A stretch of DNA of 4,331 nt from a virus (taxonomy: Duplodnaviria; Heunggongvirae; Uroviricota; Caudoviricetes): IMG/VR virus record IMGVR_UViG_2698536508_000019; one strand, given 5' to 3'. Both the position numbers and the translations under genes were made by a program. Of the stretch, positions 192-4,331 are shown piece after piece. The notes beneath the pieces were generated by a model. That model ran no database searches and had not been told where the DNA came from. It saw nothing but the letters and a program-made list of their open reading frames with translations. Position 1 is the stretch's first letter; each line of letters begins with the position of its first letter.

Positions 192-2663
192 TTAAGAATC
201 AGCCTGACTCGGGATCAGTTTTTGCCAGATAACTGAAACGTATTTTGCCTGGTAACGGGCGTCATCAAGTGCATTATGGCGCTCACCTTCGAATGGAATA
301 GCCGTTCTGGCATCGAAGTCTATGGCTTTCCCCAGCTCAACGATTGTGCGTACATCGCGATCGTTGTAGTAACGCCACGGGCAGGGGATCCCCTGCCGTT
401 CGTATGAACGGCGCAAAATCGTGTTGTCGAAGTTGGCTCCATTTCCCCAGACCTGAACAAAAAATTCACCGGAGTTTTCGTCGATAAATTCCCGCAATTG
501 TAACAGTGCATCATCTAACGGGATTTCATCGGTCATAATGGCAGATTGCGCTTCGCGTGATTGCTTAAGCCACCATTTAATGGTGTCCCGATCAATGACT
601 CCGCCAGCAGTTTCCAGATCGATAGTCTTACTAAATTCCGGTCCCATATCTCCGGTTTGCGGATCGAAAAATATTGCACCTATTGAGATGATCGGGGCAT
701 CAGGATTTTTTCCCATGGTTTCAAGGTCGATCATTAGATGGTCACACGTCCTGCTGGTGGATGTGATTTCGTGATGACCGTTCACCTTAATTGGGTGATC
801 TGCCGTCTCGCCAGTTTCATTATCGCTATTGTGATGCTGATTGCCGCCAGTGTTCTCCTTGTGTGGATGTTCAGCGCCTTCCATTTCCTCCGGATCATCT
901 TCCTGAACTTCAACCTGATACTCTTCATCGAATGTTTCTTGGTATGTTGCGTCGCCCATCACCGCGCCACAATCAGGGCAGTTGCCGCCGCCGGTCTGAC
1001 CGCAGGCGGTGCAGGCTTTTTCCACTTCCTGTTGCGCCACTGGTTCAGGCTGTTTCGTTTCTGGCTCGTTTTGTAACGCATTTGGACTGTTTTGTTCCGC
1101 TTTTTGGTAGTTCCGTTCCGATTCATGCTGGTTCTGGTTCACAGAATCGCGGGTCTGGATCCCCTTAACCCATTTCGGATCATTCGGGTCACTAATCCCT
1201 TCAACAAATTCACCACGTGATGCAGCAAGCAACTTATCGGCGTCAGGCTGGCTGATATTGGCTGCCTGCATAATTTTGTTTACTTCGTCAGCGGTAACTT
1301 TTATCGGCTCTGGTTGTTCTGAATCTTCAGCGGTATCTACATTTTGCGGTAAGCCCGTGTATGTGCCATTTTTTCGGGCAAAATATTCTTCTTTTGTGAT
1401 TTCAGTGGCGCCAGCAGCCAGTGCCTTATCCAGACCAGAAAGTTTGTTTGCGCGACCGTATTTTTCTCCGTCCTTATCTGCGAAGAGGAAATAGAACGGC
1501 CCCTCACGCTCTACAGATGGTTCAGCTTCCGGCGCGGTTTCATTTTTTGGGATATCAGATACCTCAGTTTCCACTGCATCAGTTTGTGTTTCTGATGACT
1601 GGAGAACATCAACAGTGCCCAGGTCTGTTTCTTCATTCTCAAACACGCCCTTTGTCGTCAGGTATTCGCAGATATATTTGTTCAGTGCTACGGGATCTTT
1701 GTGAATGTCGATCGGACGCTCACGGACAAGGCCAAAAATAGTTTGGCGGTCGTAGCGAAGGGCATCAGGCTGTTTGCGCATTGATGCCGAGATACGCTTC
1801 CAGTCTTCGCGGTCGTTGTCGATAACTTCTTTTTTTGCCCAGCGATGGATGCTGCCGTCAATGTTTCCGGCATCCACATCACCAGGCCAGAGAGCGTAGG
1901 CCAGTTCGTCATCCAGTGTTTTCCATGTCTGCTTGTATTCGCGATGAATGGCAGCAATGACCGGGCTGATTTTTCCTGTTGAATTTTCAGTGTACTGTTG
2001 ATTGGCTCTGGCGCGGGCGAGATCAACAACAGACGTGTATTTTCCGGTTTCCTTGCGTTCACCTTCGCGACGTTTTTTCCAGATGCGCATCTCTGCCTGA
2101 ATTTCGGGCCATTTAGCACCAGGAATACATTTATGCTTAACCCACCCAATGGCGTGCAACTTAAGCTCCGGATACATGGCGTTAACTTCTGGCATTTTCA
2201 TCAACGCTTCAACGATATGTCCGTCGAATGTTGCCATGTCTTCCTGCAACAATTCCTGTGCGCTAATAACCATATCAACGGTGATGTTTTCACATGTGTC
2301 GAACTTAACCATGACAGCGTTCTGTACTTCAGGGGCCAGCTTGTCAAAAGTGACGTTCATCGGATCGGATTCAGTCTCAACCGGGACAAAAGAAGCAGAC
2401 TCCTCATCCCAGCGGTTTTCCTGCATATATTCAGCATCCCATGAATCGAGGGCAGGGCGGGGTATGCCAGGTTTATCCTCGCAGACAATAAATTTATAAG
2501 CGCAGTCCTGAGCAGCCGGATAATGTTCCAGGAACTGCCAGTGAAATTTTGCTCGAGCACGGCGTTCGTCGCCAGCTTCAATGGCTGTGGCTACAGCCAC
2601 AGAGCCTTCTTCCCTTGTTGCCAGTTCGTCAGGAATAGCGGCGCAAATAAAGACTTTACTCAT
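192..2663 (-). CDS. Exonuclease VIII-like mosaic protein: RecE-like middle segment, CxxC-x7-CxxC zinc-ribbon motif, C-terminal DEDDh (DnaQ-like) 3'-5' exonuclease domain
   Basis: Single 823-codon ORF (ATG 2663-2661, TAA 194-192). GAGG Shine-Dalgarno motif (plus-strand cctc at 2674-2677) sits 10 nt upstream of the ATG. Segment DKLLAASRGEFVEGISDPNDPKWVKGIQTRD (aa 476-506, nt 1146-1238) matches, from memory, a segment of E. coli Rac RecE. CTAC...CPDC at aa 551-565 (nt 969-1013). C-terminal domain (aa about 640-815, nt about 219-746) carries the three DEDDh motifs: LMIDLETMG (D646 at 726-728, E648 at 720-722), GANFDNTIL (D746), HNALDDA (H796 at 276-278, D801 at 261-263). Confidence 0.92.
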   Translation of the reverse strand: MSKVFICAAIPDELATREEGSVAVATAIEAGDERRARAKFHWQFLEHYPAAQDCAYKFIVCEDKPGIPRPALDSWDAEYMQENRWDEESASFVPVETESDPMNVTFDKLAPEVQNAVMVKFDTCENITVDMVISAQELLQEDMATFDGHIVEALMKMPEVNAMYPELKLHAIGWVKHKCIPGAKWPEIQAEMRIWKKRREGERKETGKYTSVVDLARARANQQYTENSTGKISPVIAAIHREYKQTWKTLDDELAYALWPGDVDAGNIDGSIHRWAKKEVIDNDREDWKRISASMRKQPDALRYDRQTIFGLVRERPIDIHKDPVALNKYICEYLTTKGVFENEETDLGTVDVLQSSETQTDAVETEVSDIPKNETAPEAEPSVEREGPFYFLFADKDGEKYGRANKLSGLDKALAAGATEITKEEYFARKNGTYTGLPQNVDTAEDSEQPEPIKVTADEVNKIMQAANISQPDADKLLAASRGEFVEGISDPNDPKWVKGIQTRDSVNQNQHESERNYQKAEQNSPNALQNEPETKQPEPVAQQEVEKACTACGQTGGGNCPDCGAVMGDATYQETFDEEYQVEVQEDDPEEMEGAEHPHKENTGGNQHHNSDNETGETADHPIKVNGHHEITSTSRTCDHLMIDLETMGKNPDAPIISIGAIFFDPQTGDMGPEFSKTIDLETAGGVIDRDTIKWWLKQSREAQSAIMTDEIPLDDALLQLREFIDENSGEFFVQVWGNGANFDNTILRRSYERQGIPCPWRYYNDRDVRTIVELGKAIDFDARTAIPFEGERHNALDDARYQAKYVSVIWQKLIPSQADS

Positions 2664-2756: not shown

Positions 2757-2948
2757 TTAAAGACCTGCCGGGATTTCGATATTATCCTGGTGAATAACTT
2801 TATCGACCGGGTAACAGTTACCGGGAATTTTCTGTTCGGTTGCTGCAGTCATACACTCCTGCATTGTCCTGTGAACACTGACTGCAATATCAACTGGCAC
2901 TCCGGAAACAAGAAAAACTGTCAGAACAAGCGCAAATGCTGAATTCAT
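2757..2948 (-). CDS. Small hypothetical protein (63 aa) with a hydrophobic N-terminal segment; possible single-pass membrane or exported protein
   Basis: ATG at 2948-2946 overlaps the TGA (2947-2945) of the upstream gene as an ATGA coupling motif. An AAGGA SD-like sequence sits 9 nt upstream, inside the upstream gene's 3' end. Product MNSAFALVLTVFLVSGVPVDIAVSVHRTMQECMTAATEQKIPGNCYPVDKVIHQDNIEIPAGL has about 25 hydrophobic N-terminal residues and two Cys. The six-frame track extends this ORF to ATG 3002, but that would overlap the upstream gene by 58 nt in another frame. Confidence 0.55.
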   Translation of the reverse strand: MNSAFALVLTVFLVSGVPVDIAVSVHRTMQECMTAATEQKIPGNCYPVDKVIHQDNIEIPAGL

Positions 2949-3133
2949 TGTGCACATCCTTTTGGCATCAGACGTAAACGAGCCAGCATTGAAACAATGC
3001 ATATTTTATTTAATAGCTCCCGTTCTTGTTTTCTCTTGTTAATGGCATCTTCAGTAAATACAGGGTTACTGATAGTGACACCAATTTCAAAACAACCTTC
3101 AGACGTATTAACGTTTGGTAATAACGTTTTCAT
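2945..3133 (-). CDS. Small hypothetical protein (62 aa); Kil-like (KilR-type host-killing protein) by position only
   Basis: ATG at 3133-3131 is preceded by a strong SD (GAGGA, plus-strand tcctc at 3141-3145, 7-nt spacer). Product MKTLLPNVNTSEGCFEIGVTISNPVFTEDAINKRKQERELLNKICIVSMLARLRLMPKGCAQ; TGA at 2947-2945. Position and ATGA coupling to the next small gene mirror the kilR-ydaE arrangement upstream of recE in Rac. No sequence-level identification was possible. Confidence 0.6.
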   Translation of the reverse strand: MKTLLPNVNTSEGCFEIGVTISNPVFTEDAINKRKQERELLNKICIVSMLARLRLMPKGCAQ

Positions 3134-3150
3134 TATCGCGTCCTCAACAA

Positions 3151-3298
3151 TGAATTTTGTGATGCAGTGCCTGGTGCCTCCAGGTGACGTTAACCAGTTA
3201 ACAATTAACGTCGGATACAGAGAATCCACCCATAACACTGTTTTTGGTTTTAACTGTTCCGCGTGCGCTTAGCCGTATTCACCGCATCACAAAATTCA
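3151..3298. repeat. Pair of 19-bp inverted repeats (18/19 match; 15-bp perfect core tgaattttgtgatgc / gcatcacaaaattca) bracketing a 110-bp segment
   Basis: Left arm 3151-3169 (tgaattttgtgatgcagtg) and right arm 3280-3298 (caccgcatcacaaaattca) are reverse complements with one a/g mismatch. The left arm ends 18 nt upstream of the Kil-like ATG and abuts its SD. Confidence 0.8.
3186..3212. promoter_or_regulatory. Operator-like palindromic cluster gacGTTAACcaGTTAACaaTTAACgtc (8-bp inverted outer arms, three TTAAC repeats)
   Basis: Read directly: gacgttaa (3186-3193) is the reverse complement of ttaacgtc (3205-3212); GTTAAC palindromes at 3189-3194 and 3197-3202. It lies 55-80 bp upstream of the leftward Kil-like gene, inside the segment bracketed by the 19-bp inverted repeats. 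A CCTGG-n5-CCAGG mini-hairpin (3170-3184) is adjacent. Confidence 0.4.
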
Positions 3299-3385
3299 CT
3301 TTAAAAAGGGCGGCAGAGCAGTCACGGAGTAAAACTGATACCGCCAAACGTCACCAGAAAATTGATAACAGAGGGCGTTGCAGCG

Positions 3386-3556
3386 GGGTTGTCACTTAAG
3401 CGTATGGTCAACCTGACAACCCGGTGTCCTCAACGGGGAAGGAATAACCCCGCCATACTTACCGCCGCGCCATTTTGCGGGTTGCCACAACCGGAAGCGC
3501 ACGGTCGAATTAAATTTAACGACACCGTACAGTGAGACGAACTTCGCCGTGCGCTT
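3386..3556. other. Cluster of nested inverted repeats in an ORF-poor, relatively GC-rich stretch; possible structured RNA or attenuator-like element or multi-site regulatory DNA
   Basis: Inverted repeats read from the sequence: gggttgtca/tgacaaccc (3386-3394 / 3414-3422); cgggg/ccccg (3434-3438 / 3448-3452); aagcgcacgg/ccgtgcgctt (3495-3504 / 3547-3556, 10 bp perfect). An inner hairpin around the 10-bp palindrome TTAAATTTAA (3510-3519) has a stem (3501-3507) that overlaps the left arm of the 10-bp repeat, so the two pairings are mutually exclusive. No ORF with an RBS or protein-like composition was found here. Confidence 0.35.
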
Positions 3557-3598
3557 TCGTGTTGTGTGCCTGCTTTTAACCACGTCAGGCGAGGTGGT

Positions 3599-3627
3599 AT
3601 CCTTAAAATCACCACAGTTTTAAGGAT
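3599..3627. promoter_or_regulatory. 10-bp perfect inverted repeat atccttaaaa-n9-ttttaaggat whose right arm contains the Shine-Dalgarno sequence of the downstream membrane-protein gene
   Basis: 3599-3608 and 3618-3627 are exact reverse complements; AAGGA (3622-3626) lies 11 nt upstream of ATG 3638. Could be an operator or an SD-sequestering RNA hairpin. Confidence 0.45.
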
Positions 3628-3637
3628 TCATTAAGCA

Positions 3638-3958
3638 ATGTCGCAACCACCAATAAATCCGCTTAAGAACATGAAAATTGATTACTGGTATAAAGCGCTT
3701 ACAGTTGTTGGCGCTGCGTTGTTTGTCTTTAATGGAACGTCTTTTTTTGACAGATATCCCGTTGTTCCATTGGGTTTTTTGTCCTCCGGCATCTTTTTTA
3801 TTGGTTTGGGGGAGTGGATTAATCACCCTCTCATAGTGAGATTTATTGGTCCTGGAGTTTGGACTCGTGGATATAATCGTTCTTCGTGCGCACTCGGTAT
3901 CATCTTCGACATACTTGGTTGTTTCCTGATTGTTACAGGAGTCGTCAAGTTCTTCTGA
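3638..3958 (+). CDS. Small integral membrane protein (106 aa, about 3 predicted TM helices); candidate SieB-like superinfection-exclusion protein by position
   Basis: ATG 3638 with AAGGA SD; TGA at 3956-3958. Product has three hydrophobic helices (TVVGAALFVF, LGFLSSGIFFIGLG, ALGIIFDILGCFLIVTGVV) with charged residues between them. The overlapping minus-strand ORFs are K/N/R/T-rich, as expected for the antisense of a membrane-protein gene. It is divergent from the Kil-like operon across a roughly 500-bp gap, as sieB is in Rac. Confidence 0.6.
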   Translation: MSQPPINPLKNMKIDYWYKALTVVGAALFVFNGTSFFDRYPVVPLGFLSSGIFFIGLGEWINHPLIVRFIGPGVWTRGYNRSSCALGIIFDILGCFLIVTGVVKFF

Positions 3959-4058
3959 TGTAAAACCGCAAATGGGGCACGTAACGGGAATTTTGAAAAG
4001 CGTTTCTCCGGGTTCCAGAACAAAATTTTCTGCGGTCTGATTTTGCTTCTCATATTTG

Positions 4059-4331
4059 TGAGGTAGCCTGAGTTTAACGGACACTCCTTCCTGAAATAGA
4101 ATGGCATCAGAAGGAGCTAATAATGAGCAGAAAAACCCAACGTTACTCTAAAGAGTTCAAAGCCGAAGCTGTCAGAACGGTTCTTGAAAATCAACTTTCG
4201 ATCAGTGAAGGCGCTTCCCGATTATCTCTTCCTGAAGGCACTTTAGGACAATGGGTTACCGCCGCCAGAAAAGGGCTCGGTACTCCTGGTTCCCGCACGG
4301 TGGCTGAACTGGAATCTGAAATTCTGCAACT
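4059..4331 (+). mobile_element. Left end of an IS3-family insertion sequence (possibly IS600-like), extending beyond the window
   Basis: A TGAGG... terminus typical of IS3-family ends (5'-TG) begins at about 4059, 64 bp upstream of an orfA-type gene with a strong SD (AAGGAG 4111-4116). The OrfA N-terminus is an IS3-family HTH protein. The exact boundary is uncertain by a few bp, and the IS600 assignment is from memory. Confidence 0.75.
4123..4331 (+). CDS. IS3-family transposase OrfA (HTH DNA-binding subunit), N-terminal part, continues past window end
   Basis: ATG 4123 preceded by AAGGAG with a 6-nt spacer. Translation MSRKTQRYSKEFKAEAVRTVLENQLSISEGASRLSLPEGTLGQWVTAARKGLGTPGSRTVAELESEILQL has the characteristic (Y/F)SxEFKxxAV opening and HTH of IS3-family OrfA proteins; the open frame runs to the window end. 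Confidence 0.85.
   Translation, partial: MSRKTQRYSKEFKAEAVRTVLENQLSISEGASRLSLPEGTLGQWVTAARKGLGTPGSRTVAELESEILQ

Follow-up and report, generated by a model that had tools for sequence, protein, structure and literature searches.

What does a 19-nt inverted repeat do in front of a small phage gene, and does it act as DNA or as RNA? The question is raised by a virus record of the class Caudoviricetes (IMG/VR IMGVR_UViG_2698536508_000019), from which a stretch of 4,331 nucleotides, here called the window, was analyzed. A first-pass annotation made from the sequence had recorded two arms, at 3151-3169 and 3280-3298, and had offered four explanations for them: a long-range RNA stem of the kind processed by RNase III, paired distal operators, a small invertible promoter switch, or a 148-bp MITE-like insertion. 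A repeat search recovered the pair at exactly these coordinates. Each arm is 19 nt long, the arms are complementary at 18/19 positions (95%) across a spacer of 110 nt, and the sole mismatch, at arm position 16 (A vs G), leaves 15 perfect base pairs. None of 300 shuffled windows (first-order Markov) contained a 19-nt inverted repeat with one mismatch or fewer, and by calculation about 0.002 would be expected per window; the repeat is therefore not a product of chance, as the annotation had judged.

The window belongs to a Qin-type lambdoid prophage of E. coli, of which it forms the early-left region, and from 2900 to 3700 it matches the chromosome of strain E2865 with 100% identity. The genes and signals around the repeat are:

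3308-3360, minus strand: DicF sRNA, 53 nt (Rfam RF00039, 76.7 bits against a gathering score of 48)
3303-3307, minus strand: U-run of the DicF terminator
3145-3141, minus strand: Shine-Dalgarno sequence (SD) GAGGA of dicB, with the AUG at 3133-3131
2945-3133, minus strand: dicB, 62-aa cell-division inhibitor (NCBIfam NF049927, 132.8 bits against a cutoff of 100; RefSeq annotation)
2757-2948, minus strand: ydfD (DUF1482 match)
192-2663, minus strand: exonuclease, 823 aa

The DicF interval aligns base for base with the K-12 annotation b1574. The order DicF, dicB, ydfD on one strand, with which the RefSeq annotation agrees, identifies the dicBF operon, and the repeat fills the intercistronic spacer between DicF and dicB. 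It had been described as lying directly upstream of the leftward operon and ending 13 nt before the SD; it is instead internal to the operon, and the dicB SD starts 5 nt past the left arm and 3 nt past the extended helix described below. In K-12, transcripts span ydfABC-dicF-dicB-ydfD (PMC10448788). The K-12 Qin dicF-dicB spacer is the ortholog of the spacer in the window, with the same arms, DicF and DicB, 97.7% identity over the repeat-bounded unit, and an alignment free of gaps across DicF and the 5' arm. The similarity to K-12 stops upstream of about 3577, where the window lacks ydfC and has a plus-strand ORF of 106 aa and an IS3-family element. The ORF (3638-3958), which looks membrane-associated, lies upstream of DicF on the opposite strand, occupies the place of sieB in Rac and of ydfC in K-12, and has no Pfam, NCBIfam or PHROG match. 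The left end of the IS3-family element and the start of its orfA (about 4040-4331, plus strand; HTH_Tnp_1, 66.8 bits) break the prophage to the right of the DicF region.

The repeat folds better as the RNA of the operon than as its complement. The minus-strand RNA of 3304-3145 has a minimum free energy of -60.2 kcal/mol (z = -6.5 against dinucleotide shuffles), whereas the plus strand reaches only -52.9 kcal/mol. The arm mismatch becomes a G3283.U3166 wobble in the minus-strand RNA and is a C.A mismatch on the other strand. Two further pairs beyond the 19-nt arms, G3299.U3150 and A3300-U3149, bring the closing helix to 21 bp, from A3300-U3149 to G3280-C3169. This helix closes a multi-hairpin RNA unit of about 150 nt that fills the DicF-dicB spacer, with the following parts:

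3280-3300, minus strand: 5' strand of the closing helix, including the right arm (3280-3298)
3149-3169, minus strand: 3' strand of the closing helix, including the left arm (3151-3169)
3170-3279, minus strand: core of the unit (RNAalifold consensus and fold)
3276-3279, minus strand: junction GAAU
3262-3275, minus strand: P2, a small GC hairpin, weakened in the window by a G-to-A change
3213-3260, minus strand: P3, a variable arm
3186-3212, minus strand: P4, a 10-bp hairpin with loop GUUAACU
3170-3184, minus strand: P5, the hairpin CCUGG-AGGCA-CCAGG

The change that weakens P2 is a difference from K-12, and at position 3284 the window has C (a C-G pair) where K-12 has U (a U.G pair). There are no small ORFs of note inside the unit, the AUG at 3287-3285 being directly followed by a stop. 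When a longer piece, 3365-3120, is folded, the 5' region of DicF (GUGACGUUU, 3344-3352) pairs on the minus strand with AAACGUUAU (3121-3129), which spans the third base of dicB codon 2 through codon 5; this duplex of 9 bp, two of them G.U pairs, may be due to chance.

The unit is widespread. Of 5,426 complete E. coli genomes, 4,642 carry it, frequently in several copies, and it also occurs in Klebsiella, Citrobacter and E. albertii. Besides the dicB leader, it is found about 20 nt upstream of kil or kilR in Rac-type and Stx phages, and upstream of terB in the P1-like phages P7 and D6 and in phage-like plasmids. A scan of contigs with CACCNGGAGGCACNNGGC gave 120 loci, mostly chance matches in GC-rich genomes, of which about 15 enterobacterial ones were usable. 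Copies of the E. coli unit were also encountered in phages of unrelated hosts, Aeromonas phage AP1 (MT713136.1, 249966-250136; 98% identity) and an Actinobacillus phage (PP818812.1; 85%), and these may be contamination or assembly chimeras.

A MAFFT alignment of 11 copies, analyzed with RNAalifold, recovers the closing helix and three hairpins, with compensatory double changes in 12 of 43 pairs. The covariance model R1, built from this alignment, scores 166.9 bits on the minus strand of the window against 33.5 bits on the plus strand. A larger, model-guided family alignment comprises 110 matches (100 distinct), including bona fide copies of STnc100, the RNA family discussed below. In the 100 distinct sequences, 95.2% of cells hold standard pairs, against 38-46% when the partners are slid by 1-3 columns, and double changes occur in 35 of the 43 pairs, a count that is somewhat inflated by the fitting of the alignment to the model. 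In the same alignment the closing helix has double changes at 19/20 pairs and P4 compensatory changes at 10/10, and G.U pairs are common in the closing helix. Duplex prediction on the termini of copies, which needs no alignment, gives regular stems of 20-23 bp in distant copies from Citrobacter and IMG/VR, whose outer 12 bp or so are wholly different (GCAGGCUUUAAGGUGCGGUG in Citrobacter, CAACAGACCUUGCAAUGCAGUG in the IMG/VR locus L170). Because the length of the stem is kept while its sequence is swapped, the conserved entity is a two-turn double-stranded RNA helix and not a sequence. The compensatory arm changes that the annotation had proposed to seek in relatives are thus present, both as covariation in the alignments and as replaced outer arms. 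The loops and junctions of the core are almost invariant between contexts.

These patterns bear on the two explanations that have the repeat act as DNA. For an invertible promoter switch or a looping pair of operators, the geometry of the inverted repeat is the sole support. A chimeric query representing the inversion was covered to at least 80% at 0 of 13,804 places in 4,356 E. coli genomes, and all matches to it stop at 70%, as the normal orientation predicts; with this result, and with no recombinase encoded in the window, the invertible switch was rejected. No repressor gene is found in the window either, and a promoter and terminator scan of 3100-4130 detected nothing above background. 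Relatives exchange the arm sequence wholesale while keeping its complementarity and length, the opposite of what is expected of a protein-binding site, and the arms covary with G.U pairs, which speaks against paired distal operators as well. We therefore regard a DNA-level element of either kind as scarcely credible.

The other DNA explanation, a mobile 148-bp MITE-like insertion with terminal inverted repeats, would account for the inverted termini and for the occurrence of related units at several unrelated phage positions, sometimes in arrays. However, no flanking direct repeat that could be a target-site duplication was found, the flanks prolonging the inverted repeat instead, and the unit is co-oriented with its neighbor gene in every copy checked. 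The covariation of the arms, G.U pairs included, indicates selection at the RNA level. A search for loci based on DicB returned 80 nearly identical loci, which serve as a check of presence and absence and do not increase diversity. Wherever sequence upstream of dicB was available (79/79 loci), at least the 3' part of the unit is present, and none of these loci shows a precise empty site. We consider a MITE-like origin highly improbable. Neither inversion (13,804 places) nor precise presence or absence of the 148-bp unit (79 dicB loci), both of which the annotation had suggested looking for, was found.

The variants that do occur at dicB are large deletions, one end of which falls within the unit. 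Together with the negative searches for a flanking direct repeat and for a precise empty site (79 dicB loci), they led us to reject membership of the MITE class. In about 13 of the 79 dicB loci, nothing but the 3' part of the unit is left, and it begins at the identical nucleotide (TATCCGRCGTTAATTG...). The shared deletion endpoint corresponds to window position 3217/3218 approximately, between ...GU and AUCCGACGUUAAUUG in the minus-strand RNA (loci L253, L256, L258, L263, L281, L283, L315, L319 and L325). The 3' remnants are joined to at least seven unrelated upstream sequences, which are truncated replication-region genes, and the immunity region, ydfABC, DicF and the 5' arm have been lost. 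These deletions are independent events that share an endpoint in the unit. Rfam and BLAST searches of the low-scoring dicB-locus variants found no alternative 5' half.

The explanation that the annotation had listed first, an RNA stem with RNase III-type processing, fits the covariation, the strand asymmetry, the conserved helix length and the published end of a 72-nt DicF. RNase III binds a duplex of about 22 bp and cuts both strands, leaving 2-nt 3' overhangs, with a G-C pair usual between the cuts (PMC6212723). The 21-bp helix has the two-turn length (about 20-22 bp) of a stem for RNase III double cleavage. According to the passages in which PMC5069750 and PMC9438474 cite Faubladier 1990, K-12 produces an RNase III-dependent DicF of 72 nt, a length that is second-hand and gel-derived and possibly a few nt off; Faubladier et al. 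1990, as represented in citing work, described two DicF 3' ends. Counted from the 5' end of DicF, 72 nt lead to 3289 (3360 - 71), at pair 12 of the 21 pairs of the helix. A cut after the inferred U3289 leaves U3289-A3160 and G3290-C3159 between the cuts, so that the usual G-C pair is present if that position is correct. The dicA-dicF-dicB intergenic regions are listed as RNase III substrates in a review (PMC2777011). An rnc-dependent position at K-12 1649470, with 26 reads in the rnc mutant and 0 in the wild type (PMC5371410 Table S1), lies within the K-12 unit (1649440-1649594) and is flagged by its authors as a known site; the table lists low-count, low-resolution coverage peaks that were forced to be at least 400 bp apart.

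DicF may have a second such stem on its other side. K-12 also contains an RNase III-dependent DicF precursor of 190 nt (PMC10448788), whose 5' end calculates to about 3492-3497, within the 3' strand of one further feature:

3486-3569, minus strand: long hairpin upstream of DicF, an inverted repeat (-38.3 kcal/mol, z = -4.8)

Given this position of the precursor end, it seems that an RNase III stem lies on either side of DicF. A study of dicBF processing from 2023 takes up the site upstream of DicF and no other RNase III site, which counts against a cut in the spacer.

From this evidence we conclude that the repeat forms the closing RNA helix of a conserved spacer unit and that this helix is probably cut by RNase III to split DicF from dicB. 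The helix forms only in transcripts that pass the DicF terminator toward dicB. For the exact cut positions, the cut in the 3' strand, the release and function of the core RNA and the effect on dicB expression, we infer the following. Being sized for an RNase III dimer (about 22 bp), the helix would be cut near its middle, in the 5' strand at about U3289/G3288, yielding the 72-nt isoform of DicF, and in the 3' strand at about C3159/A3158, as expected from the stagger of a 2-nt 3' overhang. The second cut would release a core RNA of about 130 nt (3288-3159) and leave the dicB mRNA with a leader of 25 nt and an exposed SD. Processing would in this way uncouple the sRNA from the downstream mRNA for the division inhibitor. 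A point against this reading comes from decayed prophages, in which dicB is intact while the 5' arm is deleted, so that the helix is not required for the retention of dicB.

Could the stem control dicB translation directly, with no cleavage, like the leaders that gate other toxic genes? It might do so by hindering the ribosome just upstream of the SD or through a weak pairing of the CUUU of the terminator with the GAGG of the SD. The helix stops 3 nt before the SD, most long-stem copies are followed after 6-28 nt by the start codon of a small and often toxic gene, and duplex predictions include a 4-bp extension onto GAGG. Against this, both the dicB SD and the AUG lie outside the conserved helix, and the extension onto GAGG contains two G.U pairs, competes with the terminator stem, is not part of the centroid structure and has no covariation support. 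We think direct translational control improbable.

The family to which the unit belongs raises a different possibility. STnc100 (RF02076) is a Gammaproteobacterial prophage sRNA in Rfam, and its model matches the window at 3101-3310 with 34.6 bits (E = 5e-5), below the gathering score of 47; the K-12 Qin and Rac copies likewise stay below it (34.4 and 28.0 bits). The window aligns to the full RF02076 model, and the arms sit on its outer helix. STnc100 and its relative PasD share with the window a closing helix, a GC hairpin, a variable arm, a long hairpin and a CCNGG-AGGCA-CCNGG hairpin. A consensus structure in common with STnc100 is supported by the model-fitted joint alignment described above (95.2% of cells paired, 35/43 pairs compensatory), and the 11 copies aligned by MAFFT alone give a concordant result. 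In the opposite direction, R1 also finds STnc100: its weaker matches (40-70 bits, with E-values of about 1e-9 to 1e-13) are genuine members of that family, which score 52-132 bits in Rfam.

The copies in the leaders of dicB, kil and terB never attain the Rfam threshold, and they form a divergent subfamily of STnc100. They usually follow a CCGCCC-UUUUU terminator, most of them are followed by an SD and a small ORF no more than about 30 nt past the unit, and their stem is usually uninterrupted over about 21 bp, being shorter in the P1-like and Klebsiella copies. The closing helix of the window is regular over 21 bp, whereas that of canonical STnc100 is interrupted, with runs of 6-10 bp. The unit in the window has an sRNA terminator before it and an ORF within about 20 nt after it, in contrast to canonical STnc100, which usually has no adjacent ORF and is mostly located in arrays near tRNAs or downstream of stx2. 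This suggests that the Rfam threshold misses a whole subfamily found in most E. coli genomes.

Two observations on canonical-type and related copies may be recorded here. Tandem arrays of the STnc100 type, with 3-5 copies spaced by about 250 nt, adjoin tRNA genes and are co-oriented with them in viral contigs and one P1-like plasmid (L144, 2265-3380; L161, 342-1038; L184, 1702-2340; L242, 4349-5513; L002, 1828-4989). In a class of units scoring about 74 bits (L213, 1695-1760, and L041), a terminator-like hairpin, GGCGGUACCAGC...GCUGGUACCGUCCUUUUU, stands after the unit and not before it, and this hairpin may be another sRNA in reversed order relative to the DicF-unit arrangement.

With this kinship, the helix could mainly be the structural closing stem of an autonomous RNA of the STnc100 type, whose function would reside in the conserved core. 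The core loops GUUAACU and AGGCA and the junctions GAAU and ACAGUUAAA would then carry the function, the core might act in trans as an Hfq-associated sRNA or serve to bind a protein, and cleavage by RNase III would be merely a release step or incidental. The near invariance of the core loops and junctions in all contexts favors such a role, as do the tandem arrays by tRNAs in which canonical STnc100, with the same architecture, lies away from ORFs, and the description of both STnc100 and PasD as sRNAs. The sequence conservation of the core exceeds what a simple RNase III stem needs, and the primary role of the helix may be another one. However, the stem of the dicB/kil subfamily is long, regular and conserved in length at 20-23 bp, compared with the 6-10-bp runs of STnc100, which argues for selection on the double-stranded RNA itself. 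We consider it unlikely that the helix is mainly the closure of an autonomous RNA, a reading that is in any case compatible with RNase III processing.

Processing by RNase III remains the explanation that we prefer, and the feature is real, functional and in essence already known as an RNase III processing stem, because it is the ortholog of a characterized K-12 locus and because the first hypothesis of the annotation matches the published biochemistry. Three points appear to be new, or not explicit in the literature: that the RNase III stem closes a divergent unit of the STnc100 type, that kilR and further small early-left genes have the same unit as their leader, and that the length of the stem is conserved at about two helical turns. 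The published processing to a 72-nt DicF can now be placed in a defined, conserved 21-bp helix, and the spacer is linked to the abundant STnc100 family, for which excision by RNase III through the closing stem provides a testable handle.

Both DicF and DicB are made by prophages; they stop the host cell from dividing, change metabolism and susceptibility to phages, and influence virulence in EHEC. The splitting of their co-transcribed precursor would set the ratio of sRNA to toxin. More speculatively, the STnc100-like unit might be more than one RNase III site, namely a widespread phage "punctuation" module, a conserved RNA of complex fold excised through its stem, that separates sRNAs, tRNAs and small toxic genes within long phage transcripts, an idea that we advance tentatively and with some doubt. 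If it were correct, the invariant core would have a function of its own, for example through a partner protein or a role in trans, and, in the subfamily described here, the module would have been co-opted specifically for kil-type leaders (those of dicB, kilR and genes for peptides of 36-40 aa).

A close counterpart outside the Qin locus is the KilS-kilR leader of the Rac prophage, where, as in Qin, a DicF-like sRNA with its terminator is followed by the unit and then by the gene of an FtsZ-targeting inhibitor. The sRNA is KilS (b4833) (PMC8175672), the 3' part of which is a weak, sub-threshold match to DicF (39 bits), and the Rac unit, at K-12 1418248-1418404, scores 154.9 bits. The likeness of KilS to DicF and the common layout indicate that Qin and Rac share a module of sRNA, unit and division inhibitor. 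Rac differs in that the downstream gene is kilR and not dicB, and in that its helix has a 1-nt bulge and a U.G pair. The position 1418510 reported in PMC5371410 lies just upstream of KilS, outside the Rac unit, and is not counted as support. At this locus (L252, K-12 Rac, 749-1003, minus strand) the KilS annotation ends exactly at the start of the unit.

More distant counterparts are found among phage RNase III sites. The T7 R sites, the lambda N leader and sib are double-stranded RNA elements, formed over a long range or as hairpins, in early polycistronic phage transcripts that are cut by host RNase III. Their cuts separate or modulate cistrons, and the likeness to the dicF-dicB stem is one of analogy; to our knowledge, these sites have no sequence or structural homology to the dicF-dicB unit. 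Unlike them, the dicF-dicB stem is not a simple hairpin with an internal loop but encloses a large, conserved core of several hairpins.
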